A stretch of DNA of 64,000 nucleotides from the IMG/VR virus record IMGVR_UViG_3300017754_001832, one strand, 5' to 3'. The translations under genes were made by a program, and so were the position numbers. Each line of letters starts with the position of its first letter. Within the stretch, counting starts at the first letter, position 1. The stretch is from a virus. The notes beneath the pieces were generated by a model that saw nothing but the letters and a program-made list of their open reading frames with translations, was not told the DNA's origin and searched no databases. This document shows, one piece after another, positions 23,627-64,000 of this stretch.

Positions 23627-24291
23627 AGATCGCAGCACTCCCGCCGGGTCCGTTCGGCCTTATCTACGCCGACCCGCCATGGCGCGTCGAGACCTACAGC
23701 GAGAAGGGCCGCAACCGGCTGCCCGACGGCGATGTGGGCCACTACCAGACGATGACGCTCGACGACATGAAGTCGATGCCGGTCGCCGATGTCGCGGCGA
23801 AGGACTGCATGCTGGTGATGTGGGTGATCGACACGCACATTCCGCAGGCGCTCGAACTCGGCGCGGCGTGGGGCTTCACCTACAAGACCACGGCGTTCTA
23901 TTGGGCCAAGCTCCGCAAGCTCGGCGCCGACGGGAAACCCGGCCGCGAAGCGAAGACTCCCGAGAAGGAGTTCCCCGCCGGCATGGGATACTGGACCCGG
24001 GCGAACCCGGAGCAGGCGTTCCTGTTCACCCGAGGCAAGCCGCAGCGGATCGACAAGGGCGTGCCCAAGCTGATCCCCTTCGACGACTACCCACAGGTGG
24101 TCGCGGCCAACCGGCGCGAGCACAGCCGCAAGCCCGACGAGGTCTACGACCGCGTCAACCGGCTGATCGGCGACGTGCCCAAGCTCGAACTGTTCGCCCG
24201 CACCTCCGCACCCGGCTGGACCGCATGGGGCAACGAGGTCGGGAAGTTCGATACGAAACCCCGCAGATCGAGGACCGATTTGCTGGGATAA
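23623..24291 (+). CDS. N6-adenine DNA methyltransferase, MT-A70 family (222 aa)
   Basis: LIYADPPW catalytic motif, with downstream FYWAKL and VMWV segments typical of MT-A70-like methyltransferases. Confidence 0.8.
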   Translation: MKIAALPPGPFGLIYADPPWRVETYSEKGRNRLPDGDVGHYQTMTLDDMKSMPVADVAAKDCMLVMWVIDTHIPQALELGAAWGFTYKTTAFYWAKLRKLGADGKPGREAKTPEKEFPAGMGYWTRANPEQAFLFTRGKPQRIDKGVPKLIPFDDYPQVVAANRREHSRKPDEVYDRVNRLIGDVPKLELFARTSAPGWTAWGNEVGKFDTKPRRSRTDLLG

Positions 24292-36281: not shown

Positions 36282-37342
36282 GAGTTGGACTCCTCGTTCG
36301 CGATGAATGCACTGTTACTATCTTCTGGCCCGCGTGTCACGGCGAACCAATTTCCAAGTGCGGTGCGGAAGGTGTTCTGGAAGACGATGTGGACGGAGTT
36401 CTCCGCCTGGATCACATTCTCGATTGTCTGGCCTCGGCCGGGCACGCGGTAGACGCCATCCAGCACGCCGAAGGTCTGGTCGCTCGGGCTGGCCTGCGTG
36501 AGCGTGAAAGGGGTGAGCGTGAAGCTATCGCCATACGCCACCTGCTCACGCTTGCTCACGTCCTCGTAGCCGTACTCGCCGCTGCCCGAGTTCGATTGCA
36601 CAGAGTTGAGGACCGCGCCGAGCCCGAGGCCAACGCCGAAGAACGCCGGGCCGATGCAGGCCGGCGCCGACGTGTCATTCTTCGAGACCTTCAGCCAGTT
36701 GCCAGAGGGATCGAGCATCCACGCGCTCGGCATGTAGCCGCTCGACCCGGTCGACGAGTTGCTGTTGGAGAAGCAGAAGGCGGAGTGATCGTCGGAGACC
36801 GAGGAGTGCGAGGTCGACTCCGAGGAGCCGCCCGATCCACACGAGCCGCCGATGAACATCGGATAGGTGTAGACCGTGGGGTCCGCGTAGGGGAGGAAGA
36901 AGCCGGCATACATCGTCTCGTAGACCGTGCCGACCTGGACAACGATGATGAAGCGACGACCGTTCGCGATGAACCAATAGCGCATCGTGTTCGGGCGCGT
37001 GAACATCTTGACCGGATACGGGGTCATGTTGACGTGCAGGTCGTAGCTGGCAGCCGACTCCACGATGCCCGTGCAGCCGCGCATGTACCACGTGCTCACA
37101 TCGCCAGCGACGTTCGAGTCATCGCGCTTCATCGCCACATAGACAGACGCATCTGCCGCGAGGCCGGGGCCACGCAGCACGACGCCGAGAGCGGCGTCTG
37201 CGGAGTCGCTGTTGGAGTCGGAACCCCATGCGATCTCCCAATTCTGTCCGAGGGCCACGAGTTCCGCGTCCGTCGTGATGAACGAGATGAACTTGTCCCA
37301 AAGATCGGCGTGATTGGTCGCCGTGCCTGTCTGGTAAGCCAT
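36278..37342 (-). CDS. tail structural protein, paralog A (354 aa), possibly a distal tail protein, with two DSNS motifs plus the C-terminus EESNS*
   Basis: Immediately downstream of the tape-measure gene. Confidence 0.55.
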   Translation of the reverse strand: MAYQTGTATNHADLWDKFISFITTDAELVALGQNWEIAWGSDSNSDSADAALGVVLRGPGLAADASVYVAMKRDDSNVAGDVSTWYMRGCTGIVESAASYDLHVNMTPYPVKMFTRPNTMRYWFIANGRRFIIVVQVGTVYETMYAGFFLPYADPTVYTYPMFIGGSCGSGGSSESTSHSSVSDDHSAFCFSNSNSSTGSSGYMPSAWMLDPSGNWLKVSKNDTSAPACIGPAFFGVGLGLGAVLNSVQSNSGSGEYGYEDVSKREQVAYGDSFTLTPFTLTQASPSDQTFGVLDGVYRVPGRGQTIENVIQAENSVHIVFQNTFRTALGNWFAVTRGPEDSNSAFIANEESNS

Positions 37343-42327: not shown

Positions 42328-42772
42328 AGCGGTTGCCCTTCGAGACGTTTTCCAGCGCCGGAAGGTACTGGAGGTTGTTCAAAACATGCAGCCCCGAGAC
42401 GTTTTTCCCACGCAACGGGACAATGTGATCTACGTGATACCCCAAAGGACAGGCTTCGTAAAATCGCTCTATGGCTTTTAGATCGGCCCACGCGGGGGTC
42501 TGCTGAGACAAGCACGCACGGCGCTTGGCTTCCTTGGCGTTTTTCTTTCCGGGGTTGTTCCTCGCCCATGCGGCGATGGCGGCCCGATCCTTGGCTTTTT
42601 GTTCTTCGGATCGAGCCGCTTTAGACGCACGGACGCGGTCGGGGTGTCGCTGCCTGTATCGTTTGGCAGCCTCTCGTTTAGCCTCCGGGTTGCGGGCGGC
42701 CCAACCGTCTGCGGGGTTGCGCCGTTTCCACTCGCGTTGGGCCGCCCGCTGTTTGCTGATGTCGCGCGCCAT
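42314..42772 (-). CDS. HNH endonuclease (152 aa) inserted between the G/T chaperone and the tape-measure gene
   Basis: GYHVDHIVPLRGKNVSGLHVLNNLQYLPALENVSKGN is an H-N-H motif. Confidence 0.7.
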   Translation of the reverse strand: MARDISKQRAAQREWKRRNPADGWAARNPEAKREAAKRYRQRHPDRVRASKAARSEEQKAKDRAAIAAWARNNPGKKNAKEAKRRACLSQQTPAWADLKAIERFYEACPLGYHVDHIVPLRGKNVSGLHVLNNLQYLPALENVSKGNRYGEA

Positions 42773-43664
42773 TAGCCTAGGATGTCTTGGTCTGAGCGTC
42801 TTTTGACGGGAGGAGGCAGGCGCGGATCGCGGCGTCCCTTGGTCGGGATGATCGCGGGCTTCGCGGTCTGCGTCTTCGTCTCCGCCGGCTCTTGCCCCTT
42901 CGATCCTCCACCGAGGTCGTTGAGCATTTTCTGAAAGCCCTTGGCGCCCTTCTTATCCATCACGGAGATGATCGCGCCCTGAGTCAGGACGGCGTTCGTG
43001 ATGAGTGCATCGTTGATGCGCTTCGTCAGGCGAGCCGCCTCTTGCCATACGGCGTAGAGGGGCCACCTGTCCGCGTCAGGGAAGCCGTGGGCCTTCAGGA
43101 GGCCGACTGTATTCCAGACACCATCGAGCCAGACGCGGAGGTTCGCAGGGCGCTCACGAGACCGTTGACGCCCCCGAACAGGCTGGTCACGGTCTCGATC
43201 AACTCCCCCACACCGCCATGATCCTCCAGCGTCAGCCGGGCGACCTCTTGGATGATCTTGAGTTGGACAGGGACCGGGAGGCGCTTCGCCACCTCGAACG
43301 CCTTGGTCTGGTCTGCGTCGTCGGTGACGAGCACAACCATGTCGGCGATGAGGTCGGGGAACTGCTCGACGAGTTGCAGGAGGATCGGGCCGAGATCGAG
43401 CGCGCTCTCCTCGACCGTGGTCGGGTCAACACCCTTGGCTACCGCAGCGTCGTGGATCAGCGTGTCGGCGTGAACCTTGTTGGCGATGGTGCGCTCGAAG
43501 ATCATCACCATGGTCGGGCCGTGGACCCGCATGAGTTTGACGAGGTCGCCTGCGGACAGGCCGCGCACTTGGATGTTCTGCTCGGGCTTGTCGCCCTTGG
43601 CCTTGCGGATGGTGATCTCGGCGGTTTCAAAGCCGATGGACGAAAGCTGACTGACGGACTTCAT
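42772..43664 (-). CDS. tail assembly chaperone G (43095..43664) with a -1 frame T-like extension (42772..43097); candidate programmed -1 frameshift giving a G-T fusion
   Basis: G starts MKSVSQLSS. The -1 frame stays open across the G stop and continues to 42772. Candidate slip site TTCGGGGGC near 43168-43180. The arrangement matches lambda G/GT. Confidence 0.5.
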
Positions 43665-43748
43665 ATTTACCCTCTTCTGAAACGAGCCGGGGCCCGTAGC
43701 ATCTTGTGCCACGGGCCCCGGAAGATTGCAACCCAACTTCTACCTGTC

Positions 43749-46730: not shown

Positions 46731-47801
46731 TTAGGAGTTGGAGTCTTCTTCCACGACCCGAGCATGGAAGCTGCGGTTCGGGAACGGCGAGATGGCGAGC
46801 GGCGCCGACTGCGTCATGATGTTCATCGCGGACGGGTCTTGCTCGACCCACATCTTCGTGAACACCGGCTGAGCGATCAGGTTCTCGATCTCCAGGATCG
46901 CGCCGTAGGCCGACACGCCACCGTAATCGGCAGCCGTGATGACCAGGTCACGCGGGTTCATGATGTCCACGTGGTTGCCGCTGTTGTCCTCGTAGAAGTC
47001 CTCGTAGAGGACCAGCGTGAGGCCCGGCAGCGAGCCGACCACGGTCCACGGAGCATCCGGCGTGCGCGCTTGGATCAGCGAACGCGCGATGGAGTTGCCC
47101 TCGCCGCCACGGACGTTGGTGTCCATGAGTTCGAGCAGCTTCGTGTTCGAGCGCATGACGCGCCAGACTTCACGACCCATCGTGACAACCGAGCCGCGTC
47201 CGCCGAAGTCAGCGTTCGCCATCGCGTCGGTGTATTCCTGGAGTTGCGCCACGATGTCCGTGGTGGAGTCCCAGAGGCCGGTCGTCTTGATGTCCGTGAG
47301 CGCGGTGTCGCGGCCATAGTCAACTTCGACGGTCGGGCCGTCCTGATACTCGACCAGCACCTTGCCGTAGGTCACGGCTTGGAAAGCCATGATCTCCTGG
47401 CGCCGCTCGATGATCTTGCGGTGATGCTCAAGGATCGCGGCGATCTCCGCGTCGCGGTTCTGAGCCGGCGAGCGAGGCGAGTCGTCGTAGAGGTTGCCGG
47501 GGCGGCGCGTGAACTGCTCGCCGGGGATCACCGGGTCTTTCAGCTTGATATAGGCCGGGCTGAAGGACGCGGCGGTCGAGCCACGGCGCCGGTAGGACGG
47601 GCGGCCGGGGTTCTGCGGCAGAGAGAACGTCGCGACCTCGCGGTTGCCGACGATCTTTTCCCAGATGATCGCTTGCTTGTCCGACTGGAAGATGTTGGAC
47701 GAGAAGCCGCCGAGATTCCGCCAGTAGTTGCTGACGGTTTCGAGGCGCTGGTCGCGGAATACGCCCAGCAGCGCACGGGGGGAGAGAACTTCGAGAGACA
47801 T
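46731..47801 (-). CDS. major capsid protein, lambda gpE-like (356 aa) with a C-terminal ...VVEEDSNS* extension
   Basis: RGSTAASFSPAYIKLKDPV and IMTQSAPLAISPFP align with lambda E segments (RGGSTSEFTPGYVKPKHEV, TMIQSAPLMLLADP). Confidence 0.75.
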   Translation of the reverse strand: MSLEVLSPRALLGVFRDQRLETVSNYWRNLGGFSSNIFQSDKQAIIWEKIVGNREVATFSLPQNPGRPSYRRRGSTAASFSPAYIKLKDPVIPGEQFTRRPGNLYDDSPRSPAQNRDAEIAAILEHHRKIIERRQEIMAFQAVTYGKVLVEYQDGPTVEVDYGRDTALTDIKTTGLWDSTTDIVAQLQEYTDAMANADFGGRGSVVTMGREVWRVMRSNTKLLELMDTNVRGGEGNSIARSLIQARTPDAPWTVVGSLPGLTLVLYEDFYEDNSGNHVDIMNPRDLVITAADYGGVSAYGAILEIENLIAQPVFTKMWVEQDPSAMNIMTQSAPLAISPFPNRSFHARVVEEDSNS

Positions 47802-48327: not shown

Positions 48328-49644
48328 TTAGTGCTTCGCGGTTGACTTGGGCTCGCCGAAGCGAGCGGCGAGGACGCGGGCCGCAGCAGCCGCATCTTTC
48401 TGTTCGGCGGTCATCTGCTCCTGCGTTTCCGAAGCAGCAGCGCCAGGGCCTTTGCCGGCGTCCGCCATGAGCTTGTCGAAGGCCGGGTTGCCGCTGTTGG
48501 TCGCGGTGTCGGCTTTCGGCTCGACCTTGGCCTCTTCCGGCATCTTGCCGAGGAACGCCTTGGCCTGATCGACCGTCATGTCCGTGTCCATGGCGCACGC
48601 TTCAGCGGCGGCCGGGCGGGTCTTGGCTTCGTCCAGACCCTTGATCGCGACGATGCGCTGCTTGGCTTCGGCACGGGCGGTCGCGGCGGCAGCCGCAATG
48701 GCGGCATCGTGATCGGCCTGCGGGACGGTCTTGGCTTCGGTTGACATCCTAGTATCTCCTGTGTCGCCCATGAGGTGGGCCGCAAATTCACTCATCGCCT
48801 CATCGAAGGCGCCAATGGCGTCGGCGAGTTGTTCCGTTACAGCCTCACTGGCGGTGAAAGTCAACGCCTCAGTCTTGCGGACTTTTGCGTCGCTGATTCC
48901 ACGGTTGCGGGACACCTGCGAACAGAACACGCCGTAGGTCTCGTCGATGCGGGATTGGATGCGGTCTTTCGCACCTTCCGAGAGGGCCTGGTACGGGTTG
49001 CCGTCCACCTTGTGTTTACCCGCGTAAATGAAGGTGATCTCGACGCCTTCCATCTCCATCGCCTTGGCGAAGTTGATGTGCATCGTGACCACGCCAATCG
49101 AGCCCACGCCACCCGTGCGGGAGACCGTGATCCGCTCTGCGGCGGAGGCCACCGCGTAGCCGGCGGAATAGGCGTGCTCGTGCGAGAAGGCGCGGATCGG
49201 CTTGACCGAGCGCGCGGCGTAGATGCGGTCGCAAAGCTCGAAGCACCCCGCGACGTGGCCGCCGGGGGTGTCGCAGACGAGGGCGATGCCCTTCACTTCG
49301 GGATCGGCGAGGCCGCGTTCGAGGGCCTTCTGGATGTAGTAGTATCCGGTGGCATACGAGCCAGCGGCATACGGGAAGTTGTGGAGCAGCGCACCCTTGA
49401 CGGGGATGTGCAGGATGCCCGCCTTGACGGTGTAGGGCTTGTACGCGGACTGCCAATCACCGGCTTGCGGCCAGTAGTCGTCGTGCATCATGTCGCCGTT
49501 GGCCGCAGCCATCAGCGCCGGGAAGTGGGTGTCTGCCGCTAGAGCGCGAATGCAGGCCGTGATGCGGTTCGACTGATCCGGAGCGACGAGGATCGGATCG
49601 AAGTCACCGCCGACGAGCGTGGAGAGTGCGAGGGGCTGGCTCAT
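48328..49644 (-). CDS. prohead protease, S49/ClpP-like (lambda gpC-like), fused to a scaffold-like Ala-rich C-terminal region (438 aa)
   Basis: SppA/S49-like core (GIALVCDTPGGHVAG...GSIGV), then a long Ala/Glu/Lys-rich tail. Confidence 0.7.
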   Translation of the reverse strand: MSQPLALSTLVGGDFDPILVAPDQSNRITACIRALAADTHFPALMAAANGDMMHDDYWPQAGDWQSAYKPYTVKAGILHIPVKGALLHNFPYAAGSYATGYYYIQKALERGLADPEVKGIALVCDTPGGHVAGCFELCDRIYAARSVKPIRAFSHEHAYSAGYAVASAAERITVSRTGGVGSIGVVTMHINFAKAMEMEGVEITFIYAGKHKVDGNPYQALSEGAKDRIQSRIDETYGVFCSQVSRNRGISDAKVRKTEALTFTASEAVTEQLADAIGAFDEAMSEFAAHLMGDTGDTRMSTEAKTVPQADHDAAIAAAAATARAEAKQRIVAIKGLDEAKTRPAAAEACAMDTDMTVDQAKAFLGKMPEEAKVEPKADTATNSGNPAFDKLMADAGKGPGAAASETQEQMTAEQKDAAAAARVLAARFGEPKSTAKH

Positions 49645-51359
49645 TCGGTTACGTCCTTCTTCTTCTCTTTCTTCGCCGGGTCCGTTTCGTTCGAGTCACG
49701 CGCGTCGCCGCTGATGGCGTTCTGCATGTTCGGGTCTTGGTCTATCGGCATCAGATCGTATTCCTTGAGAAGTTCCTTCTCGCGTTTTTTCTGCTTTAGC
49801 ACGCGGCGCCAATCGGCGCCATATGTGCGCGCAAGCTCGCGCTCCAGCGTCGAGAGGTTGTTGTTGATCTTCAGGACCGAGGCTTGCGTTTCCTTCAGTT
49901 CGTCGATCTGGTCGCGGCCAACGCCGAGCCATTCGCACTGCGTGTAGGCATCGCGGTTCATGCCCTCGTAGAAGTCGGGCTTGCCCTTCATGGTCTCCAG
50001 AAGGCCCTTGCCGACGGCCTCCTCGAACCACAGGCGGTAGATGTAGGTCGCGAAGCGATCCGCCACCATCCGCTTGCGCGAGGACATCGTCTTGTCGGTC
50101 TGGTTGAGCGCGGCGCGCAGCGACGAGTAATTCGACTGCGACGTGTCGCGGCTGAGTTCTTCGTAGGACACGCCGAGGTTCGCCGCGATGTAGCGGAGCA
50201 GGGACGACTCGAACTCGGTGCCGAGCGGGCCACCCTTGCCGGCCGGGCGCAGTTCGAGCTTCTGGCCGGGGAACAGGTGCGGGATGCGAACGCCGTCGAT
50301 GGAGAGCGAGCGCGATCCACCGGAGTATTCGTTGACCGCGCCGAGGTAGTTCTCGGCCCACGTCACGAGGTTGTCGTCGTCGCCAGTTCCCAGAGCCTCA
50401 TACGCCTGGCTCGGAAGCTCGGCTTCGATGGAAGCCGCGAACGTCGCGTTGACGACCGCGTTCTGGAGGTTGATGTCGCGCCACTTCTTCGTGATCCGCA
50501 TCTCTTTGAGTGCGGACACGAGATCGGAGATGCCGCGCGTCTAGTCGATGCGCTGTTGCTCCATGATGTGGATGATGCGCTGGCGGCCCCATGCGGTGCG
50601 GGCCGGATAGTTCGACCACTTCGAGGCATCCTCGGGCCGGGACATCGCAACGTCTGACGGGTGCGCGTCGCGAATCCAATAGCTGATCGGAGCGCCATAG
50701 TAGTCACGCTCGACGCCGGCACGCAGGCGGCCCTGCGGCAGCCCACCATACGGGTTCGAGAGACGGTCGCTCTCGATCATCTGGATCGCGGTCTGATAGG
50801 GCCGCGCCATCGACGAGCGCATGTATTCGGCGGAGGCGAGGACTTCGCCGCTCGCGAGGTAGACGCCGACCGCAAGGCGCACGAGGCCCGTCAGCGTGTT
50901 GTGGCGCGAAGCGTCGGGCCAGTTGTCGGGGCTCTCTGCCCACAGACCGAACTTGCTCTCGACCTCTTCCTGAAATTCCTCTTCCCACTTCTCGTCCTTG
51001 ATGCCGAGAGCGAGCGCGTTCGGCTTGGCCGAAAGCATGAACATCGAGCCGACCACGCCGTCCCGGTGGAGGCGTTCGCCGGCTTGCACGTAAGCGTCGT
51101 TCCGCAGCACGTCGCGTGCCCGGCCGGTGGCTTCGTCCCGTTCGTCGAGGATGTCCGCGTCGGCGGAACGCAGGGCGGGCGACCAGAGGGCCAGGTCGCG
51201 GTTCGTCTTCGACGCGCCTTCATGCGCGCCGCCTACAAGGGCGAGGTCTCGGCCCGGCCGCACGCGAGAGGGTTGCGCGTTTGACCGGGACCGATCCTCT
51301 CCCGAGGGAGCTTCGATTCCGAGGATGTCTTCAATGCTGCGACGAGTCATCCCATCCAC
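49641..51359 (-). CDS. portal protein, lambda gpB-like, interrupted by an in-frame TAG at 50541..50543
   Basis: The N part (272 aa) and C part (292 aa) are in the same frame, separated by a single amber codon. Together about 571 aa, typical of a portal. Position between gpW and the protease. Confidence 0.7.
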
Positions 51360-51583
51360 ACCTTGATCGGGCCAGAGCGCGTAGACACTTCGGCGAGTTG
51401 ATCCGTGAGTTCCTGAATGTAGGCTTTCAGCGCCGCACGGTTGGCCGGCGTGTATTCCACCCGCTCACCGTTCTGATCGACGACCACACGCGGCGCTCCG
51501 CCGACGACGAGGTTGTGATACGCGGTCTCGGCAGCGGTCTTGCGCGCCGTCAGAGTCGCTATTTGTGCGGATGTAAGCGCCAT
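51347..51583 (-). CDS. head-tail joining protein, gpW-like (78 aa)
   Basis: Small ORF between TerL and the portal. Start MALTSAQIATL. Confidence 0.45.
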   Translation of the reverse strand: MALTSAQIATLTARKTAAETAYHNLVVGGAPRVVVDQNGERVEYTPANRAALKAYIQELTDQLAEVSTRSGPIKVWMG

Positions 51584-51645
51584 ATCTGAGCCCTCGGCAT
51601 GATTGCAAGCAATAACCTTGAGCCGCCCGGAATGCAACCGGACGG

Positions 51646-53721
51646 TCAAGCCATGGATTCTCCCAAGGCGGAGAGCTTCTTACGGGGCTTTGCCTTGCTC
51701 ACAAAGCCACCTGCGGCGGGGCCCGAGATCACGAGATCGTTGTGGTCCCATTCCTTGGCCCAACCCGGCGGTGTGTCCCAATCCATCGTCTCGCCACGGA
51801 TGCGCGCGTCGATCTGGAGAGACACGACGTAGTAGAGCAAGTCCCACGCTTCGTTGCGGCGACCCTTGCCGGTCGTCTCCCACCCTTTCGGTGTGCGGAC
51901 CTCGGCGGTCAACTGCGTGTAGAGCCAATCCTCGGCCCAACGAGGGAAGTGAACCATGCCGCCGCCGGGCTCGGTCCTGCCGAGCATCGCGTAGGCCGTG
52001 TCCTTCTGGAGGTTCGAGTTGATGAAGCCCACAGGGATGTCGCCGCGTGCGCCGGCCTTGCGATCCTTGCGCTGCGAATCCGGGTGATGGATTTTGTATC
52101 GCTGCGCAGTCTTCGACGGCTCGCCCTTCAGCAGTTGGAACCGTTTGTGGTGGCCGCCCGGGTGAGTGTCGCGGAGCCAGCGCCAGAAGTTGTAGGCGTT
52201 CGTCGTGACGCCTTCCTTACCGCCCGAGTCGCAGCCCACGAGCTTGATCTGCATGTGGCGGCCCGAACCATCGGCGAGCGGGTACGTGCGCTCGATCACC
52301 TGATCGACGAGCAGGTGCCAATCTTCAGGATACGCGGCGGGGTCGATGGGCTCGGGGTCGCCGTCCACGTCGAGTCGGAGCGACTTGCGAATCTTGAACA
52401 TGTCCACGTGCCAGACATCGCCACCAACGCCGAAGCCGTAGACATGCACGACGAAGGTCGAGCGCATGCCGGCCTGCACGTCGATGGTCGCCATCATGTA
52501 GCGGACACCGTGAGGCACGACCGGCTCGCGTTGTGAGCCACCCCAATCCTCGGCGCGTGCCTTCAGTTCCTCGGGCAGGCGCTCGGACATCAGCGCCTTC
52601 GGGATGTACGCCTCGCCCTGGTCCACGTTGACGGTGGACTTCAGTGATTGCTCGGAGCCGGTCTTCTCGTATTCCTCGCTCGCCTTCAGGAAGTTGAAGA
52701 CGAGGGTCTGCCATGTCGCGAACGCGGCGGCCGGGCCCTTGAGCCAGAAGCTCGCGATCTCGCTTCGCACCGGAGTCCCCGTGATGCGACCGTCCTGCTG
52801 CCAGACCTGCCCGTCGCGAATCCATTTGCCGCCGAGGTTGAGACGGTGCTTCTGCGAGTGCTGGATGTGCGTCAGGCAGTGCGGGCACTCCATGGTGGCG
52901 CGCTCGGACTTGAACACGTCGTCGCCTTCCTCGGGCCACTGAAGCAGGCTGAAGGACGGCTCGAACTTGCCACGGCAATCAGGGCACTCCCAGAACCAGC
53001 GGCGCCGGTCGCCACGGTTGAACAGCGAGAGGATGCCCTTGGTCGGCGGAGCTTCGTGCTTGCTGCTGGCGATCCACTTCGGGTTGTCCACCGTGAAGCC
53101 CGGCGAGGACTCCGCCACGGTCATGCCGAAGCGGCGGAACGTCGTCGCGCGTTTGCGTGCCAGATCGAAGGGCGAGCCTTCGCCGTCGATGTCCTCGGGC
53201 ATGCGGTCGTAGTCAGTGAGCCACAGGCGCGGGATCGGCTTACCCGAGAGTTCGGAGATCGCAGGGTGGCCGAGGGTGAGCAGCATCCCACTGCGGAACT
53301 GCGTGTCGAACACGTTCTCGTCGAGCGTCCTCTCGCGAAGCTGCGGCACGTCGCGATAGAGACGCGAGAGACGACGGAGCGAGAAGTCGCGGGCTGCCGT
53401 GTTCGTCGGGTTGATGATGAACATGTCTGCCGGATCGCAGATCGCGGAGTACGTGACCCAACTCAGGAATGGGTCGGTCTTACTGGCCTGCGCCGGGCCG
53501 ACAAACACTGCACCCGTGTATTCGTGGGAAGTCAGCGTGTCCTGAAACTCGACGCTGTAGGGCGCGATGCTGCGGATGTACGGGCCGACGTAGTTGCCGG
53601 GGTTGTCCATCCAGCGATACTTCTCGGCGGCCTCGGTGACAGACAGGCGCTCGGGCGGGCGCACGGTCTCAGCCGCAGAAGCGACCATGTCTTCGAGACA
53701 GAGGAACTTAGGCCCCTTCAT
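51646..53721 (-). CDS. terminase large subunit, GpA family (691 aa)
   Basis: Size, position and a lambda-A-like N-terminal ATPase region (FVGPAQASKTD). Confidence 0.8.
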   Translation of the reverse strand: MKGPKFLCLEDMVASAAETVRPPERLSVTEAAEKYRWMDNPGNYVGPYIRSIAPYSVEFQDTLTSHEYTGAVFVGPAQASKTDPFLSWVTYSAICDPADMFIINPTNTAARDFSLRRLSRLYRDVPQLRERTLDENVFDTQFRSGMLLTLGHPAISELSGKPIPRLWLTDYDRMPEDIDGEGSPFDLARKRATTFRRFGMTVAESSPGFTVDNPKWIASSKHEAPPTKGILSLFNRGDRRRWFWECPDCRGKFEPSFSLLQWPEEGDDVFKSERATMECPHCLTHIQHSQKHRLNLGGKWIRDGQVWQQDGRITGTPVRSEIASFWLKGPAAAFATWQTLVFNFLKASEEYEKTGSEQSLKSTVNVDQGEAYIPKALMSERLPEELKARAEDWGGSQREPVVPHGVRYMMATIDVQAGMRSTFVVHVYGFGVGGDVWHVDMFKIRKSLRLDVDGDPEPIDPAAYPEDWHLLVDQVIERTYPLADGSGRHMQIKLVGCDSGGKEGVTTNAYNFWRWLRDTHPGGHHKRFQLLKGEPSKTAQRYKIHHPDSQRKDRKAGARGDIPVGFINSNLQKDTAYAMLGRTEPGGGMVHFPRWAEDWLYTQLTAEVRTPKGWETTGKGRRNEAWDLLYYVVSLQIDARIRGETMDWDTPPGWAKEWDHNDLVISGPAAGGFVSKAKPRKKLSALGESMA

Positions 53722-55658: not shown

Positions 55659-56265
55659 GTTCTTGTCCCTCTGGGAGATATGGGTAGGCTTTGAGCGCGG
55701 AGTCGGGATTGAGGTTGTAGACAGCAACCCCACGTTTTTTGAGATCGGCAGGCTGGCGCGCGAGGCCCCACTGCTGGCGTTTGTAGCGATCATTCCAATC
55801 CTCAGTCAGCGTGCCCGTGAAGTGGCGTTCCTTGTTCGGGCCGGGCTTCACGTCCACGCCCACCAGAAGGATGCGGCGCGATCCACGGAGCACCGCGTAG
55901 TTGATGGCGAGCGCGGTCGTCGTGAATGTTCCGCGTAGTTCGGCCGGGTTCTTCGAGAGCCCGCCGCCGGCCACCTTCGGGATGAACCGGATGCGGTCGT
56001 CGTGAAGCTCGGGCGGCAGGGGCTTCGGGTCCGTGTAGAGGATCAGCGGCCCCTTGTAGCCAGACAGGTCTGGCGTGCGGCGCGCGTACCGATGATCGCC
56101 GATCATCAGCACCTCGGCGTGAGGCACCTTCAGGTAGCCGTCCTTGACCGCTATCGTCTTCAGGCCCGCGATGCGCTCGAAGTTGAACGAGTTCACCGAC
56201 GGGCCCGAGGCGACGATAGCGACCGTGCAGCCAGCCCAATCACGAGGGACGACGTGAGACTTCAT
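55645..56265 (-). CDS. DUF115 / Maf-like (MptE-like fold) protein, paralog 1 (206 aa)
   Basis: TVAIVASGPSVNSF...IAVKDGY...ILLVGVDVK. Same motif family as 26834..27562. Confidence 0.5.
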   Translation of the reverse strand: MKSHVVPRDWAGCTVAIVASGPSVNSFNFERIAGLKTIAVKDGYLKVPHAEVLMIGDHRYARRTPDLSGYKGPLILYTDPKPLPPELHDDRIRFIPKVAGGGLSKNPAELRGTFTTTALAINYAVLRGSRRILLVGVDVKPGPNKERHFTGTLTEDWNDRYKRQQWGLARQPADLKKRGVAVYNLNPDSALKAYPYLPEGQEHDIA

Positions 56266-56831
56266 TCGTCAGTCGAACCGATGCCATCATTCTTGAACGG
56301 GCGCACGAGCACCGCGAGTTCAACGCCGATGCGCTTGGGCTTGATCGGATCAACCTCGACCACCTCGGCGAAGTGCTTCTTCAGGCGCTCCATCCACCAC
56401 TTCGTCGGCTTGACGATGAGGTGCGCGTTGCGACCGTCGGCGAGGGTCTTGTTCGCCAGGCGTTGCGAGATCACCAGCAGGCCGCGCACCTTAACGAGCG
56501 AGGCGATGTGCTCCAGCACGTTGTCGAGCATGTCCGGTTCTACGTGCTCCAGAACGTCGTTGCAGGTGACGAAGTCTGCCGGCTTCGGCATCTGCGGCGC
56601 GGTGACGGGGTCATAGCCCTGTGTCGCCACCATAGGCGCGCGGGCCGCGATCTCAGCGAGCAGGTTGCCCTTGCCGCAGCCGTAGTCGAGATACGAGAGG
56701 GCGCCGGCACCCGTCATGTAGTCGAGCACGCGGTCGGCCCACGCATCGCCCTTGCCGCCGTACTTCGCCTTGCGGCCATGAAGCTCAGCGTTGAGCGCGC
56801 GATACTGTTCGGAGATGAGTGGCTTGGTCAT
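56262..56831 (-). CDS. class I SAM-dependent methyltransferase, paralog 1 (189 aa)
   Basis: LDYGCGKGN (motif I) and FVTCNDVLEHVE. Confidence 0.65.
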   Translation of the reverse strand: MTKPLISEQYRALNAELHGRKAKYGGKGDAWADRVLDYMTGAGALSYLDYGCGKGNLLAEIAARAPMVATQGYDPVTAPQMPKPADFVTCNDVLEHVEPDMLDNVLEHIASLVKVRGLLVISQRLANKTLADGRNAHLIVKPTKWWMERLKKHFAEVVEVDPIKPKRIGVELAVLVRPFKNDGIGSTDE

Positions 56832-57367
56832 TTGATCCTCGTGATGAGCACAGCAAGTTCGGATGCGGCTTTCGTCTCGTCGAGGATAGGAACCTCTTCG
56901 ATTCTGTAGGGGCCTGCGAAAGCGACGGCGATGGTCTGGAGCCACCACTCGCGCGGCTTCACCAGCGGGTGCGTGTCGCGCTTCTTCGGCGAGCGGTTGC
57001 GCAGCGAGATCGTGATGAGGGCGCCGTTGCGAGCGCAGCGGCGGATGTCGGTGAGGACCGCGTCATACATGCCGACCTCTACGTGCTCCATCACGTCGAT
57101 GCAGGTCACGAAGTCGGCGGGCATCGGCGTGATGTCGCCGAACGCAGGCTCATACGACGTGCCGGTGAAGTGCAGGCCGTCGGGGTGTTCGAGAACGTGG
57201 TACGCGAGGGCGCTTCGACCAGCGCCGTAGTCGAGGATCGACTCCGAGGCCGTCTGGTGCATGTAGGCCACGACACGGTCGGCCCATCGGTGCCCGATGA
57301 TGCCGAAGTTCGGGTCGCGGTCGTGCAGCGCCTTCAGACGCTTGCGGTGCTCGACGGTGATGGTCAT
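56828..57367 (-). CDS. class I SAM-dependent methyltransferase, paralog 2 (179 aa)
   Basis: LDYGAGRSA and FVTCIDVMEHVE. Paralogous to the previous gene, with ATGA start/stop overlaps. Confidence 0.65.
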   Translation of the reverse strand: MTITVEHRKRLKALHDRDPNFGIIGHRWADRVVAYMHQTASESILDYGAGRSALAYHVLEHPDGLHFTGTSYEPAFGDITPMPADFVTCIDVMEHVEVGMYDAVLTDIRRCARNGALITISLRNRSPKKRDTHPLVKPREWWLQTIAVAFAGPYRIEEVPILDETKAASELAVLITRIK

Positions 57368-58077
57368 TGCTTGTTCGCTCGCTGCGCTTCGATCTCTGCC
57401 GCCGCGTGGACCCACAGGTCTGCGAAGCGAACGCTCTTGTGGTTGTAGAACCACGGGCCACCGTTGGTGTAGTGGATGCCGGCCGGCGGCTGCGCGCTCT
57501 CCCACTCATACTCGCCTTCGAGCCAGTTCCACGTCTGCGGAACGCCGAGGATTTGATGTTCCGCGATCCAGTTGAAGCGGTGCAGGTCGGCGGCCTTGGC
57601 GCTGTTCACATACTCCGGTGTCAGTTGCCGACACTGCGGGTTGTTGAACAGCATCAGCGACGACCAATTCTTGCGGGGGTACGCGACCTGGGGCTGCCCA
57701 TCCATCTTGAAGGCGGCCTTGGGCGTGTAGTCGTGCTTCACGAGGGCGACGCCGTACTGCACCGGCTGCACCTTGTCCTGCTCGCCACGGACGAAGTCGA
57801 GGAGGCTCTTGATGTCGCGGGTGAAGAGGAAGTCGCAATCCACGAAGAGGGCCGTGCCCTTGTAGCCGCACAGGTAGGGCACGAGGAAGCGGGTGTGGGC
57901 GAACTCGGTCGAGGCGGGCTCGTCTGCCGGGCGGGTGTAGATACCCCGCTCCCGCAGCTTGTCCTGCTTCAGGCCGACGATGGCGAGCGGGATGGATGTG
58001 TGGGCGCGGAGCGAGGCAGCGCAGACCTCGAACGCGGCGTGTTCTCTGGCGTCGTAGCCGATGAAGACGTGTAGCAT
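57364..58077 (-). CDS. glycosyltransferase, GT-A fold with a DXD motif (237 aa)
   Basis: Start MLHVFIGYD. FVDCDFLF (DXD). Preceded by the conserved CAGCACTAGAGGGAACTGACATG element. Confidence 0.45.
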   Translation of the reverse strand: MLHVFIGYDAREHAAFEVCAASLRAHTSIPLAIVGLKQDKLRERGIYTRPADEPASTEFAHTRFLVPYLCGYKGTALFVDCDFLFTRDIKSLLDFVRGEQDKVQPVQYGVALVKHDYTPKAAFKMDGQPQVAYPRKNWSSLMLFNNPQCRQLTPEYVNSAKAADLHRFNWIAEHQILGVPQTWNWLEGEYEWESAQPPAGIHYTNGGPWFYNHKSVRFADLWVHAAAEIEAQRANKQ

Positions 58078-58112: not shown

Positions 58113-59564
58113 CTACCGCAATCGCAACTCTCGGTCGATGTCTTCTTTCGTGATCCGGACCCGGCTCCTCAGATCGTCCTCTTCGGCCTGTTTTACGGCC
58201 TGGTTGTAGATCACGTCCTCGTCCCGCGTGCCCCGTGCGAGGATGTGGCGGATGTAGACGTGCGGGGCCTCTTGGCCGGGCCGAGGCAGACGCATGTTCA
58301 ACTGCCGGTAGGTCTCGCCCGATTCCTGTAGGCCGTACCAGATCAGGTTGTGGCCGCCGTACTGCATGTTGGTCCCGTGCGAGATGTTGCCGGGGTGGAC
58401 TGCGAGGTTCCTGATCTTGCCTGCGTTCCAATCTTTGATCGCGTTCTTCCCGTACTCGTCGAAGAAGACGACCTTCTTCCCGAACCGCTTCCTGATCGCT
58501 TCCTTGTCGAACTTGTAGCTCCACGCGATCAGGGCGTGGTGCCCGTCGAGATCGCGGATCATGTCTTCAAGCACGTTGAGTTTGTAGTCGTGAACGAAGA
58601 TCGCGTTTCCACGTTCGCGGTACATCGACCCGTTGGCCCACTGAAGCTGCTTGCTCGTGAGCACTGCGGCGTTGATCGCTTCGATGTCGCGCTTCTCATC
58701 GTAGTTCTCACGGGAGAATTTTTTATACTCGCGCATGAGCGACGGCGGGAAGTCTACCCACCGTGTCGTGAAGGGGTGCGTGATGACCGGCGGGAGCTTG
58801 ATGTGGTCCTCGGCGCGCAGCGAGATCATCAGGTCGGAGCACCTATCCATGATCTCGTCTTTGGCGCCGGGTCGAGGCTTCAGCGTGAAGCCGTTGTAGC
58901 TCTTGGAGAACCACCGCTCCTCGAAGTCGGATTTCTTGATGCCGAGTCGCTCGCCGCCGTCGAGCACGTACATGAGACCCCACATGTCGTGGACGCCTTC
59001 GGGAGACGGTGTGCCGCTCATCTCGATCACGCGCTCGCACATCTTGCGCGCACGCGCGAGGATGCCGAAGCGTGATAGCGGCTTCGAGCCTTTGCCGCCG
59101 CCGGCTCGTGTGGTGCGCTTGCGGCCTTCCTTCAGCATGGACGCTTCGTCGATGACGAGCGTGTTCCAGAACCACCCGTCTTCGCCGCCGATCACCTCCC
59201 AGAGCCACGCGAGGTTTTCCTTGTTGATGATGTGCAGGTCCACGTCCTTGTCGAGCGCGGCGAGACGTTCGGCCGGGGTGCCACACATCACCGCGTAGGT
59301 GATGCCGCGAAGGTGTCGCCATGTGGCGATCTCGGTCGGCCACGTATCGGTGGCGACGAGCAGCGGCGCGATGACGAGGCCGCGAAAACGCTTGCGGCGC
59401 TGCTGCTTCCGCTTCTCTTTGTCCTCGGCGACGAAGTCCAGCACGGCCTCGGTCTTGCCCAACGACATGTCGATGGCAAGCAGGGCCGAATCCATATCGT
59501 GACACTTCATGGTCGCGAAAAGCTGGTATCCACGTCGCTCGAAGTCAAAGCGGGTCTTAGGCAT
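58113..59564 (-). CDS. SF2 (DEAD/SNF2-like) helicase (483 aa)
   Basis: GKTEAVL (Walker A-like) and LVIDEASMLKE (DEAS box). Confidence 0.6.
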   Translation of the reverse strand: MPKTRFDFERRGYQLFATMKCHDMDSALLAIDMSLGKTEAVLDFVAEDKEKRKQQRRKRFRGLVIAPLLVATDTWPTEIATWRHLRGITYAVMCGTPAERLAALDKDVDLHIINKENLAWLWEVIGGEDGWFWNTLVIDEASMLKEGRKRTTRAGGGKGSKPLSRFGILARARKMCERVIEMSGTPSPEGVHDMWGLMYVLDGGERLGIKKSDFEERWFSKSYNGFTLKPRPGAKDEIMDRCSDLMISLRAEDHIKLPPVITHPFTTRWVDFPPSLMREYKKFSRENYDEKRDIEAINAAVLTSKQLQWANGSMYRERGNAIFVHDYKLNVLEDMIRDLDGHHALIAWSYKFDKEAIRKRFGKKVVFFDEYGKNAIKDWNAGKIRNLAVHPGNISHGTNMQYGGHNLIWYGLQESGETYRQLNMRLPRPGQEAPHVYIRHILARGTRDEDVIYNQAVKQAEEDDLRSRVRITKEDIDRELRLR

Positions 59565-59861: not shown

Positions 59862-62063
59862 TCAGTCCTTGATCCAAACCTTGCCAATGCTCCCCTTGGC
59901 ATACAGGGGTAGTTCTTTCTCGGTGGCCCACGGCATGGGCTCACGCAAGCATTCTTCCATCGTCTTCAGCACCCACTCTGCCTTGCTCTCCTGCGCGATG
60001 GCAACGGGTTCGTCGTGGACGTGGAGGACGAGGCGACCGACGTTGCGCGGCACGCGCTTGCGGAAGCGCATCATCGAAGTCGCGAGGATGTCGCGCGAGA
60101 TGGCTTGGTCCGCGTTTTCCGTCAGTTTGCCGGGGTGCGTCTGGATGCGGACCCACTTGTTCTTGTCGTTGAGACCTTCGTAGGTCAGCGAAACTTTCTC
60201 TTTGGTCTTCTTCTTATTCGGTTCCTTGCACAGGAACTCGGGCAGGTACTTTTTCTGCTTCTCGCACCAGATCAGTTCCACGTCTTCGAGACGCGGGCGC
60301 ATGTAGCTCAAGCAGCGGCCCGAGGGCAGCCACATCTGGAGGAAGGGGCCGCTGCGGGCGAAGCGAACCGGGCCTGCCCACGCTTCCTTGTCCGTTTTCA
60401 TCGTGAGCTTGGCGGCCTTCTCGATCTCCCACCAATACGCGACGGCGTCCTCGTAGGTGTCGCGCCAGACACGCACCGAGTCGATGGCTTCCTGCGCGGT
60501 GAGCTTCACACCCATGTTCCACGCATAGCCGAGCAGGCCCGTGGCCTCCATCTCGCCGGTCTTGTGGTTCTCTTTCTCCTCACCAGCAGACAGCATGTAG
60601 CCGCAGCCAAGCACGCCCGGCTTCGCGACGGTACGCTTCTTCTTGTTGCCGGCGGCGACCTCCGCCGCGATTGCCTCGTAGGTGTCACCGTACATCTTCG
60701 TCGCGAAGTCGATGTAGGGATCGAGGTTGTTGCGGAAGACGTTGAGAATCTTCTGGTCGCCCGAGAGATAGCCGAGGACGCGGTTCTCGATAGCGTTCAA
60801 GTCAGCGGAGACCATGACCATGCCCTTCGGCGCCTGCACCGTCGGACGGATGCAGGTGGAGAGCATGTCGATGGGGCCGGGCTTCTGCACGTCCTTCCAC
60901 GACTTGTCGTAGACCAACTCAAGAGCTTCCGGTGTCAGGTGCTCCAGATGCTCGACGCAGACCTCTTGCAGCTTCTCCAGAGCCGGATGCGGCCGGGCTA
61001 GGTTCTGCGGCTGGATGAGTCGACCGGACCAACGCCAGGTGCGCTGCGCGCCCGCGAACTGCAAGCAGCCTTGAATGATGTCGTGGTCGAGATCGACCGC
61101 GCGCTCCATGGCGTAGTATTTGTCGGTCGAGGTCTTGGCGATCTCGGCGCGCATCGCGAGCACTTCCCGCACGGTGTCAGAGAGGCGCGTGTCCTCGGCG
61201 GCCTTCTTCACGTGCGCGGCCTGCATGTCACTGAAGCGATAGCCGTTGTCGTTGAGCCATTCGAGAAGCTGCGGGTTCGAGCGGGGGTTATCGACCCCGG
61301 TCAACTGCTTGATCCGCGCGTATCGCTTCGCCCTGATGTGCTCGACGAACTTGATGGCGTTCGTCACGACATTCATGTTGATCGGGATGCCGTCGTTGTT
61401 GATCTCGTAATCGAGGCACCACAAGTCCCACTCATGCTGCGGCAAGTCCCATTTGCGGATGCGGTTGTAGATGCCACGCTCCGCCGCGATGTCGGCGCGG
61501 TTGTATCCCTTGAACTCGTCCCACTCCTCGGGATCGGTGAGGTAGTCGGACCAGACCCACGGCTTGTGCTTGGTCGGCTTGCGAGGCTTGCAGAAACGGT
61601 TGATGAGCGCCTTGCCGCGCTGCTCTTTCTGGAGATCGAGCGGGAGGTCGAAGATCGGCCCGGCCATGCCGAGGCCGGTCGGCGCGGAGAGGCACATCGC
61701 CTGCGTCTGCGTGCAGCGCCACTCGTCGGGGAATATCTCGACGCCGCAGACCTCGCGCCAGACCGACATCTCCATTGATGCGTTCCACGAGCGTTTCTGC
61801 ACTTCGGGATCGCGGATCGCGTCACGCAGATCGCCGGGCATCTTCTCGCCCTCCGCCGGCACCCACTGTTCGATGGGGCCGTTGTCGAAGGCGTAGGCGA
61901 GCATCAGGACTTTGGTGGAGGGATCGCGCGCATAGCGGCGGGCGCCGACTTTCTTGATGTCGGAACGAGACTTGGTCTCGAAGTCATTGAAGAAGATCGT
62001 CACCGAGGACGGCCTCGTTTCGCTTCGGATTCGGGGGTGAGGGGTCTCACGTTGATCTCCCAA
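59862..62063 (-). CDS. family A DNA polymerase with 3'-5' exonuclease (733-aa ORF; the true start is possibly a GTG near 62003)
   Basis: Exo I FFNDFET; motif A DLNAIENRVL; motif B RTVAKPGVLGCGYM; motif C VHVHDE. Confidence 0.8.
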   Translation of the reverse strand: MGDQRETPHPRIRSETRPSSVTIFFNDFETKSRSDIKKVGARRYARDPSTKVLMLAYAFDNGPIEQWVPAEGEKMPGDLRDAIRDPEVQKRSWNASMEMSVWREVCGVEIFPDEWRCTQTQAMCLSAPTGLGMAGPIFDLPLDLQKEQRGKALINRFCKPRKPTKHKPWVWSDYLTDPEEWDEFKGYNRADIAAERGIYNRIRKWDLPQHEWDLWCLDYEINNDGIPINMNVVTNAIKFVEHIRAKRYARIKQLTGVDNPRSNPQLLEWLNDNGYRFSDMQAAHVKKAAEDTRLSDTVREVLAMRAEIAKTSTDKYYAMERAVDLDHDIIQGCLQFAGAQRTWRWSGRLIQPQNLARPHPALEKLQEVCVEHLEHLTPEALELVYDKSWKDVQKPGPIDMLSTCIRPTVQAPKGMVMVSADLNAIENRVLGYLSGDQKILNVFRNNLDPYIDFATKMYGDTYEAIAAEVAAGNKKKRTVAKPGVLGCGYMLSAGEEKENHKTGEMEATGLLGYAWNMGVKLTAQEAIDSVRVWRDTYEDAVAYWWEIEKAAKLTMKTDKEAWAGPVRFARSGPFLQMWLPSGRCLSYMRPRLEDVELIWCEKQKKYLPEFLCKEPNKKKTKEKVSLTYEGLNDKNKWVRIQTHPGKLTENADQAISRDILATSMMRFRKRVPRNVGRLVLHVHDEPVAIAQESKAEWVLKTMEECLREPMPWATEKELPLYAKGSIGKVWIKD

Positions 62064-62171
62064 TGCCGCAAGCGCCAGGCGGAGTACGCCTCGCGCTTCT
62101 CGGCATCAGTCGCCCCCTCCGGTAGTGAGGTCGGAGGGGGCACTGAGTCGTCAACGTAGAACGGTTTGGGC

Positions 62172-63038
62172 TCAGAAGGGGATGTCATCGTCATCCCGAT
62201 TGCGGCTGCGGCGCGAACGCGGGGCGTCCTCGTCGTCATCGCGGTTGCGGCGCGAACGAGGAGCTTCCTCCTCGGCGTCGCGGTTACGGCGCGAACGAGG
62301 AGCTTCCTCCTCGGCGTCGAAGCGTTCGCGGCGACCGCGCGGAGCGTCGTCCTCATCGCGGTCGCGGTTGCGGCCACGCGGGGCGTCATCTTCGTCACGG
62401 CCACGGCGCGAGCGCGGGGCGTCGTCTTCATCACGATCACGGCCACGACCACGCATCGGGACATGGCTGCCCTCGTCGTCGTCTTCGTGTGCCTTGAACT
62501 TGCTGAGATCGGCGGCGCCTTTGCCGAACGCTTCGCCCTTGCGGAAATACTGGACGATCTCCAGCGAGGCGTTCACCTGGTCGTTCCACTCGTCGTAGGC
62601 GTAGATGCGAACGAGAGCGTTGACGTAGCACCCGCCGTAGGGCTTTCCGTCCTTCTCTTCCGCACGAGTCATGTCGGCGAGGAAGACCTGCGGCGCACTC
62701 TTGGCCGGCGCGGCGGCTTTCAGCAGCATGCAGCCCTGAAGCTCGTCCTTGTCGGTGTCATCACCATCCACGAGGCAGAGGTTCTGCTCCTGGATTTTCG
62801 GGGGGTTCTTGCCCCACTTGTCGGCGATCACGTCGTCGATTGCGTCCTCGATCTCCTCGATCAGCTTCTTGTGCTTCTTCTTGTCGAGGATGAAGCCGCA
62901 GGTGTAGCGCGGCTTGGAGTTCGGGTCGGCCTTGCCCTTCCGCTGGAAGGTGGTCGGCTCGAACAGGTGGGGGTGGGAGCAGCGAACGTCTTCGAGATAG
63001 ACTTCGACGTTCAAGTTTTTCTGACCTTTGGCGGCCAT
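62172..63038 (-). CDS. DUF2815-type phage ssDNA-binding protein with a tandem Asp/Arg-rich C-terminal repeat array ending DDDDIPF (288 aa)
   Basis: N-terminus MAAK..KNLNVEVYLEDVRCSHPHLFEP is DUF2815-like. Six copies of DEDDAPRSRRGRxR. The tip DDDIPF matches the SSB C-terminal tip. Confidence 0.65.
   Translation of the reverse strand: MAAKGQKNLNVEVYLEDVRCSHPHLFEPTTFQRKGKADPNSKPRYTCGFILDKKKHKKLIEEIEDAIDDVIADKWGKNPPKIQEQNLCLVDGDDTDKDELQGCMLLKAAAPAKSAPQVFLADMTRAEEKDGKPYGGCYVNALVRIYAYDEWNDQVNASLEIVQYFRKGEAFGKGAADLSKFKAHEDDDEGSHVPMRGRGRDRDEDDAPRSRRGRDEDDAPRGRNRDRDEDDAPRGRRERFDAEEEAPRSRRNRDAEEEAPRSRRNRDDDEDAPRSRRSRNRDDDDIPF
62200..62460. repeat. Tandem repeat of about 45 nt inside the SSB-like gene (encodes the DEDDAPRSRRGRNR repeats)
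   Basis: Visible as repeated GCGGTTGCGGCGCGAACGAGGAGCTTCCTCCTCGGCGTC units. Confidence 0.7.
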
Positions 63039-63121
63039 GGGGTAGTCCTTTCACGGTTTCAACGGTTTCACAGATCAACGCCTTTCGGCGTGCGTGACAA
63101 TCGACCTACAGCTTTCTCAAG

Positions 63122-64000
63122 TCAACCCTCCTCTTCCTCATCTTCAAAATGCTCGGTGAAACGCTCGCGCATCGTCGCCATTGGTTTGCGCGGATCGGTG
63201 AGGGGCACCAGCACAGGTTTTCCCGGTGCTTGCACGACGTGCGGCTTCAGCTTGTCCTTGCCGCCCTTGCCGAGAACTTTCTGCGCGGTCGCAGGCGAGA
63301 TCAGCTTCTTCGGTTGGAATAGCTCGACATGCTCGGGCAGCGTGTCCTCCAGCCATTCTTCAGCGGCTTTCTCATCTGCCCACTGACGGATGCCGAGACG
63401 GCCCTCGACGACCTTCTTCCCGCCGCCATCCTTGCCCGCCATGCAGTCGTTGATGTGCGCTGCGTGCAGGCGCTTGAGCCACTGCGTGAGGGCGGGCGCC
63501 ATATCGAGGATGCGGGCGCGGTGTTCGGGGTCGAGCGTTTCGAGCGGCGGTAGCTCGGGCTCTTTGTGCGTGCGGCCTTGGAACTGCTTCAGCTTGAGCC
63601 GGGCCTTGTTGAGGTTCCACTCGTCGTATTCGCGGCAGTGGCCGTTGACCGCTGCCTTGCAGTATCCGCACTGCTTGTCGCCCGGCGTGCGCGGTGCGTC
63701 GGCGTCATAGGTCAAGGCACCCTTGTCCTTCACCTCGGCCATGAAGTCCATGAGTTCGTCGTAGGTGCAATACATCTCACCGCCGCCGCCCTCGTTGCGC
63801 GGCTGGTCGATGACGATGCGGAACAGCGGATCGGGCGCGTCCTTCGGCCAGATTTTCTTGGCGTACTGATCCCAGAAGCCGCCGGCATAGATGCGAAGCT
63901 GGCGGTTGCCCTCCGCGCGCACAGGCAGGCCCGCGCCATACTTCAGATCGCGGATCGTGATGAGGCCGCGCTTGACGTTGATGATGCCCACGTCGAGCGT
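63122..64000 (-). CDS. PD-(D/E)XK / Cas4-like nuclease family protein (DUF2800-like), 5'-truncated by the window edge
   Basis: KQCGYCKAAVNGHC cysteine cluster. Lies beside DUF2815 and the polymerase, as is typical. The ORF continues past the window end. Confidence 0.4.
   Translation of the reverse strand, partial: TLDVGIINVKRGLITIRDLKYGAGLPVRAEGNRQLRIYAGGFWDQYAKKIWPKDAPDPLFRIVIDQPRNEGGGGEMYCTYDELMDFMAEVKDKGALTYDADAPRTPGDKQCGYCKAAVNGHCREYDEWNLNKARLKLKQFQGRTHKEPELPPLETLDPEHRARILDMAPALTQWLKRLHAAHINDCMAGKDGGGKKVVEGRLGIRQWADEKAAEEWLEDTLPEHVELFQPKKLISPATAQKVLGKGGKDKLKPHVVQAPGKPVLVPLTDPRKPMATMRERFTEHFEDEEEEG

Follow-up and report, generated by a model that had tools for sequence, protein, structure and literature searches.

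An in-frame amber codon interrupts the lambda-family portal gene of a metagenome-assembled phage genome

The portal is present in 12 copies per virion, and amber mutants of the lambda portal gene, B, are classic. E. coli without a suppressor reads UAG at a low rate, and then inserts mainly Gln. Lambda gpB is divided into a wing (residues 24–249 and 368–452), a stem (250–279 and 343–367), a clip (280–342) and a crown (453–511) (PMC10721106). Recoded phages also place in-frame TAG codons at Gln positions in late structural genes (Borges et al., bioRxiv 10.1101/2021.08.26.457843; PMC9523058), and the path described to such recoding sets out from a low G+C content and the acquisition of suppressor tRNAs (Borges et al., bioRxiv 10.1101/2021.08.26.457843).

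The gene described here lies in a stretch of viral DNA of 64,000 nucleotides, hereafter the window, and carries one in-frame TAG at a position where its relatives encode Gln. The G+C content of the window is 60–66% and, judged from its sequence, neither a low-G+C start nor the gain of a suppressor tRNA applies to this phage.

The interrupted portal gene and its genome

The lambda-family (gpB-like) portal gene occupies 49641–51350 on the minus strand, with 569 sense positions and a TGA stop, and is interrupted at codon 270 by an amber TAG (50541–50543, minus strand; 'cta' on the plus strand) that replaces CAG (Gln270). The variant base is 50543, which is A on the plus strand and G in the sibling contig described below. 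The earlier note had quoted a peptide spanning the stop and had reported reading frames of 272 and 292 amino acids in one frame, and both were reproduced exactly: minus-strand translation of 49641–51359 reads ...IIHIMEQQRID, stop, TRGISDLVSALKEMR..., and the ORF list holds 50541–51359 (272 amino acids, GTG) and 49641–50519 (292 amino acids, GTG) in a shared frame. The actual start of the portal is the ATG at 51350, which matches that of an intact homologue, P0001 (MTRRSIEDIL...); counted from this codon, the N-terminal fragment has 269 amino acids (50544–51350, minus strand) and the rest of the gene comprises 299 codons and the TGA (49641–50540, minus strand).

Both halves match Pfam family PF05136, the first over profile positions 2–203 of 354 (157.5 bits) and the second over positions 206–353 of 354 (100.1 bits), each above the curated cut-off of 32.9. 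Because the two halves are collinear and cover the family model in order, they form a single portal gene cut at one codon, without indel or rearrangement; together with the direct reading of the codon, this confirms that a single in-frame TAG splits the gene. The frame of approximately 530–580 amino acids that marks the family is thus broken in the window at codon 270. When portal length was compared with that of relatives, as the earlier note had proposed, the homologues proved to be 522–644 amino acids long and none was interrupted; the window portal is 100% identical to the 569-amino-acid P0001 except at the stop position, where P0001 has Gln. The closest solved structures are PDB 8vhx, entitled 'Portal' (E 6e-151), followed by lambda gpB, 8k38 (E 4e-76), and the nearest cultured portals, 48–57% identical, belong to siphophages of Achromobacter, Ruegeria, Rhodobacter and Pseudomonas. 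The JGI/IMG gene calls divide the gene, on one contig, into P0126 (the N-terminal product) and P0122 (286 amino acids, from an internal ATG). P0126 forms a singleton cluster, and truncated portal products occur on this single contig among about 15 billion proteins.

The TAG aligns with Gln244 of lambda gpB. Since it falls just before the stem, the 269-amino-acid fragment, which is the sole product expected under the standard code, would hold the first wing segment only and would lack the stem, clip, tunnel loop and crown; these elements, with the second wing segment that carries the tunnel loop, are encoded downstream of the stop. By comparison with gpB, the product would therefore be without every element that forms the DNA channel and binds terminase and adaptor, and the allele is predicted to be null. 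The assertion that neither half alone could serve as a portal is upheld. A working split portal produced by reinitiation was considered and rejected by inference, as the nearest restarts, GTG at 50519 and ATG at 50501, are without a good ribosome-binding site; reinitiation at either would also lose the invariant R and G of a Q-T/S-R-G motif.

The surrounding head module has the order seen in lambda (large terminase, gpW, portal, S49 protease, decoration-like protein, gpE-type capsid), with the neighbours of the portal intact. The large terminase subunit of the gpA family (51646–53721, minus strand; PF05876 and PF20454) is intact, as is the major capsid protein of the lambda gpE family (46731–47801, minus strand; PF03864). 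Between these lie the gpW-like head-tail adaptor gene (51347–51583, minus strand), assigned through PF02831 in the sibling contig and mapped via alignment, the stop of which overlaps the portal start, and the S49 head protease/scaffold gene (48328–49644, minus strand; PF01343). In the tail region a Pre_tape_measure (tail assembly chaperone) gene at 43095–43736 (minus strand) is followed by small ORFs (42772–42963, minus strand) and then by a tape-measure gene of 1661 amino acids; the tail assembly chaperone region before the tape-measure gene is the usual site of a programmed -1 frameshift.

The window also encodes replication genes, with DNA polymerase A, an SNF2 helicase, DUF2800, MazG and methyltransferases among its products. 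An MT-A70-family methyltransferase lies at 23623–24291 (plus strand; called on a 97%-identical contig), and two adjacent genes of Methyltransf_23 type lie at about 56262–57500 (minus strand); these phage-encoded enzymes make it plausible, from their domain assignments, that the phage modifies DNA. In the early-gene block an ORF of 365 amino acids (10991–12088, plus strand) has an HNH_3 / His-Me finger endonuclease domain and may encode a homing endonuclease. A megablast search of positions 49000–52000 against 50,697 deposited phage genomes gave no DNA-level matches, and a search of early-region proteins against viral contigs found no relatives for the left end of the genome.

The source contig is 68,473 bp long, and the contigs of relatives are 68.5–69.7 kb. 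The window end at 64000 aligns to position 4484 of a relative contig of 69,747 bp (L012), 4,483 bp from the end of that contig. This agrees with the 4,473 bp of the source contig beyond the window, and the two contigs terminate at equivalent positions to within about 10 bp. The coinciding ends suggest that the genome may have defined physical ends and that the window start would be position 1 of the contig; no terminal repeat was detected between the window start and the end of the relative. Taken together, these features of the assembly indicate that the window is part of a metagenome-assembled phage contig of roughly genome length, and neither a chromosomal prophage nor a laboratory strain.

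Related genomes and the use of TAG

The sibling is contig L001 (48,396 bp) from the Logan assembly of SRR10520207, which carries an intact portal of 569 amino acids with CAG at codon 270. Over the compared span, window positions 33749–61350 (27,602 bp, with 1–33748 and 61351–64000 lying outside it), the two sequences differ by three substitutions and no indels (99.99% identity). The first, at 50543 (A in the window, G in the sibling, plus strand), gives TAG versus CAG at portal codon 270 (minus strand). The second, at 48699 (T versus C, plus strand), falls in codon 316 of the S49 protease gene (minus strand), which is ATT (Ile) in the window and GTT (Val) in the sibling; and the third, at 36583 (T versus C, plus strand), falls in codon 254 of a tail gene of 354 amino acids (36278–37342, minus strand), AGC (Ser) versus GGC (Gly).

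CAG is found at the portal codon in all of contigs L001–L005, which are 85–99.99% identical to the window, and the four strains beyond the sibling (85–97% identical) agree with it both in this CAG and in the Val of the protease. As the relatives share CAG and Val, the window alleles are derived at 50543 and 48699; at 36583 a relative with 88% identity has Ala, so that either Ser or Gly may be the derived state. Gln at the equivalent of portal position 270 is invariant among full-length homologues (124/124) and lies within the Q-T/S-R-G motif.

Allele searches were extended to viral and metagenome contigs, among which the window's own contig is apparently not included. Exact 26-mer scans with R at the variant base returned no matches, the pattern being too long for diverged strains. 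A 21-mer scan of metagenome contigs with Y at the variant base gave 23 matches, three of which are portals, all with CAG; the sole TAG match (L034) was a chance match unrelated to the portal and was discarded. Exact-protein look-ups for P0126 and for proteins of 784 (GTG start translated as V), 440, 590 and 1661 amino acids gave no match, and since the 1661-amino-acid gene is identical in contig L013, these failures are due to gaps in the index and not to sequence differences.

Several related strains co-exist with the window phage: contigs L007, L014, L015 and L016 are about 97% identical to it, L002 and L006 about 88% and L003–L005 about 85%, and they are spread over JGI samples 3300022407 and 3300017780 and runs SRR10520207, SRR10520208, SRR11555629 and SRR129835xx. 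The head genes are much more conserved among strains than the tape-measure gene region (79–82% identity). P0001 is recorded from Logan only, and the neighbouring run SRR10520208 corresponds to JGI sample 3300017780, which suggests that the window may be the JGI assembly of the same sample as SRR10520207; a single read set would then contain both alleles.

At each of the three sites the sibling has G:C where the window has A:T, and each difference alters the encoded protein (Gly/Ser, Val/Ile and Gln/stop). Random G:C>A:T changes in these genes were computed to be 42.6% synonymous and 4.2% nonsense; by comparison with that 42.6%, three nonsynonymous changes out of three look like changes still unfiltered by selection. 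The chance of a shared direction is about 0.25 and that of no synonymous change about 0.19, with n = 3 being too few for statistics. The pattern fits very recent mutations and damage or errors alike, and the three A/T differences look like either one slightly mutated haplotype or deamination-type damage. No sequence motif shared by the three variant sites was seen. A Dcm-type 5mC deamination hot spot was rejected for the portal codon, given that its coding-strand context, GACCAGACG, is not CCWGG and that the three sites are without a common motif.

The earlier note had taken TAG to be an ordinary stop elsewhere in this DNA, with examples at 6014 and 7821, and TAG does end ORFs at both places (6014–6016 and 7821–7823). 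A further control is the SNF2-helicase gene, which ends in TAG at 58113–58115 (minus strand); the next ATG comes after a spacer and a ribosome-binding site, and L001, L002 and L003 share both this TAG and the C-terminus before it with the window. TAG ends 1 of 23 called genes in L001 and 5 of 21 in L002 and L003. At the other gene-like ORFs in the window that end in TAG, the frame closes within 13 codons or is without coding signal, and the portal is the only window gene with a coding frame that continues past a TAG.

Two further candidates for interrupted genes were rejected. The MazG-domain gene (17903–18436, plus strand) ends in TAA at 18434–18436 and its frame is then open for >200 codons into an ORF listed at 703 amino acids; codon-position base composition showed 18437–18682 to be non-coding in the MazG frame, so that this is not a second interrupted gene. 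The actual gene after MazG is 18426–18914, and the large HTH-containing ORF probably starts near 18920. A pair of ORFs split by TAG (21536–21730 and 21731–21928, minus strand) is antisense to a real gene at 21597–21878 (plus strand; MSATKPNAG...) and is an artefact of high G+C.

A search for a suppressor tRNA, another check that had been proposed, found none: ARAGORN reported no tRNAs in the 64-kb window or in 16 related loci, nor in the stretch of an 85%-identical relative that matches the last 4.5 kb of the source contig. Rfam gave no match in the window. An RNA fold of 121 nt around the stop had z = -1.22, with 26 of 200 shuffles folding as well, and contained no stimulatory structure. The stop is not conserved among relatives in the manner of a readthrough signal, the codon being CAG in L001–L005 and the residue Gln in 124/124 homologues; and none of the marks of code 15, namely many in-frame TAGs, disuse of TAG as a terminator and a suppressor tRNA with a CUA anticodon, was found. 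The view that global recoding of TAG is unlikely is thus supported, as the SNF2 gene terminates at a TAG, the portal is the one gene so split and no tRNA was found. Pyrrolysine at the UAG was ruled out because all homologues have Gln.

Explanations for the amber codon

Of the four options for the TAG that the earlier note had left open, sequencing error and a real point allele remain, and those of a laboratory strain, a decaying prophage, and readthrough or a phage-borne suppressor found no support. Our leading explanation, to which we give about even credence, is that the TAG is a private, recent and unprogrammed nonsense substitution, a real allele carried on a slightly mutated phage haplotype that is defective alone. 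The amber codon would have arisen by a spontaneous C>T transition in the coding strand (CAG>TAG), at the invariant Gln270 of an otherwise intact portal gene in a siphophage genome. Under the standard code the gene would then yield a wing-only fragment of 269 amino acids unable to form the portal channel, leaving the genome defective by itself. Such a genome would be replicated and packaged only with portal protein supplied by a co-infecting wild-type sibling, and the allele would be purged, or else the mutation may simply be very recent. A 99.99%-identical genome with CAG does exist in a sister sample or in the identical one.

Several observations bear on whether the variant is real. The JGI and Logan assemblies of another (sister) sample agree at 21,707/21,707 bases, so the two assemblers do not routinely disagree. 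A k-mer must occur in several reads to be emitted by a De Bruijn assembler, and one seen once is discarded, a rule that favours a variant really present in the reads. The otherwise clean contig, the JGI/Logan agreement and the k-mer rule favour a real variant, and the shared direction of the three changes fits one haplotype. We infer that the allele is present in the DNA rather than in the consensus only, and that it may persist by complementation. On the other side, a portal-null genome is expected to be rare in the population, and its appearance as the assembly consensus is somewhat surprising.

An artefact of sequencing, DNA damage or assembly, with the phage DNA itself carrying CAG, is distinctly possible, though we consider it short of probable. 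Low local coverage, cytosine deamination, errors in library amplification or read error-correction could each have put T in the consensus. Both the singleton state of the allele and the improbability of a portal-null genome as the majority form favour such an origin, a null allele of an essential gene being unexpected as the majority allele; all three differences, moreover, belong to the classic deamination and PCR-damage class (G:C>A:T), none is synonymous, and two of the three are at residues conserved in all relatives. Against it, the contig is clean in other respects (no indels in 27.6 kb), the two assemblies of the sister sample agree perfectly, and several reads must have carried the T given that assemblers drop k-mers seen once. 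G:C>A:T is also the commonest class of spontaneous mutation in GC-rich genomes. A nonsense point change and a consensus error are alike ordinary, each being already known in kind.

It is unlikely that the allele is real and viable through suppression, either by a Gln-inserting amber suppressor tRNA of the host or by basal readthrough with a near-cognate tRNA-Gln. The lost codon is Gln, so that Gln inserted at UAG would restore the exact wild-type protein, and only 12 portal subunits are needed per virion. Nevertheless, only two sense codons can become TAG by a transition and CAG is one of them, and the match with Gln therefore has little weight. Efficient suppression would also extend the other genes of this phage that end in TAG; no suppressor tRNA is present in the 64-kb window, the 16 related loci or the relative's stretch matching the far end of the contig, and no stimulatory RNA fold follows the stop (z = -1.2). 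A suppressor borne by the phage, or readthrough as a regulatory device, as the earlier note had entertained, is not supported, the stop being absent from every relative, including the one with 99.99% identity, and no tRNA or RNA element having been found. The fuller proposition, that a real TAG haplotype enters virions and persists in nature through the reading of UAG as Gln (by a host suppressor tRNA-Gln or basal readthrough), appears still less probable. If true, the phage would be a conditional or leaky amber variant of natural origin and, conceivably, a first step to TAG=Gln recoding in a siphophage lineage of high G+C.

It is highly improbable that the gene is a pseudogene of a cryptic prophage in decay or that the amber (sus) allele was made on purpose in a laboratory. 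Under both a nonsense codon in an essential head gene would be expected; however, the disruption is single, with three substitutions and no indels by comparison with the sibling in 27.6 kb, and the rest of the head and tail genes are intact. The ORFs scanned gave no integrase, tRNA or host-like flank, the relatives' contigs fall in one size class (68.5–69.7 kb), and the source contig and that of one relative terminate at equivalent positions to within about 10 bp, so that the suggestion of a cryptic-prophage pseudogene is not borne out. As in a sus mutant, a single nonsense change separates the gene from the wild type, with CAG in a 99.99%-identical genome; yet the sequences come from metagenome assemblies (JGI/IMG and Logan) and not from a laboratory or a cultured stock, and no similar phage is found at the DNA level among the 50,697 deposited genomes, which leaves the laboratory-strain option unsupported. 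Finally, that the phage uses or moves towards genetic code 15 (TAG = Gln), or regulates its late genes by programmed readthrough, is scarcely credible and can be rejected on the sequence data, for although an in-frame TAG at a Gln position in a late structural gene is what recoded phages have, there is one such codon in 64 kb, the SNF2 genes of this phage and of three relatives terminate in TAG, the searches gave no suppressor tRNA, G+C is 60–66%, and the 99.99%-identical sibling has CAG.

The biological weight of the finding is small: one nonsense change in one environmental phage assembly, with a near-identical sibling intact. For annotation, the two 'portal fragments' (269 and 286 amino acids, JGI) are best merged into a single gene marked as interrupted, and the TAG in the window portal should not count as evidence of alternative genetic coding. 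Should the allele prove abundant and linked with the two other changes, the case would become a small but clean instance of a defective phage haplotype that complementation or suppression carries in nature.

Comparison with described systems

With phages that use code 15 (crAss-like, Lak and others), the window phage shares an in-frame TAG where homologues have Gln, in a late structural gene. It differs from them in having one such codon instead of dozens, in using TAG as a terminator, in its high G+C and in the results that no suppressor tRNA was found and that the nearest sibling is without the TAG. The amber hot spots at CCAGG (Dcm) sites share with this locus the CAG>TAG transition, and the window phage encodes methyltransferases; the context in the window, GACCAGACG, is different, in that the mutated C is not the inner C of CCWGG.

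The allele also has features of within-population nonsense variants kept by co-infection, being derived, private and deleterious and standing beside a near-identical wild-type genome in the same sample set. As in defective genomes maintained by complementation, other unfiltered amino-acid changes accompany it.

A comparison can also be made with the amber (sus) mutants of lambda gene B and the portal ambers of other tailed phages. The window phage is not lambda, its portal being a distant relative of gpB (E 4e-76); unlike the lambda B ambers, its allele comes from a metagenome assembly rather than a mutagenised stock, and any dependence on a suppressor is here putative. What is shared is a single TAG in a PF05136 portal gene with the head block intact and, as for the lambda B ambers, a portal predicted to be cut short and non-functional in the absence of suppression.
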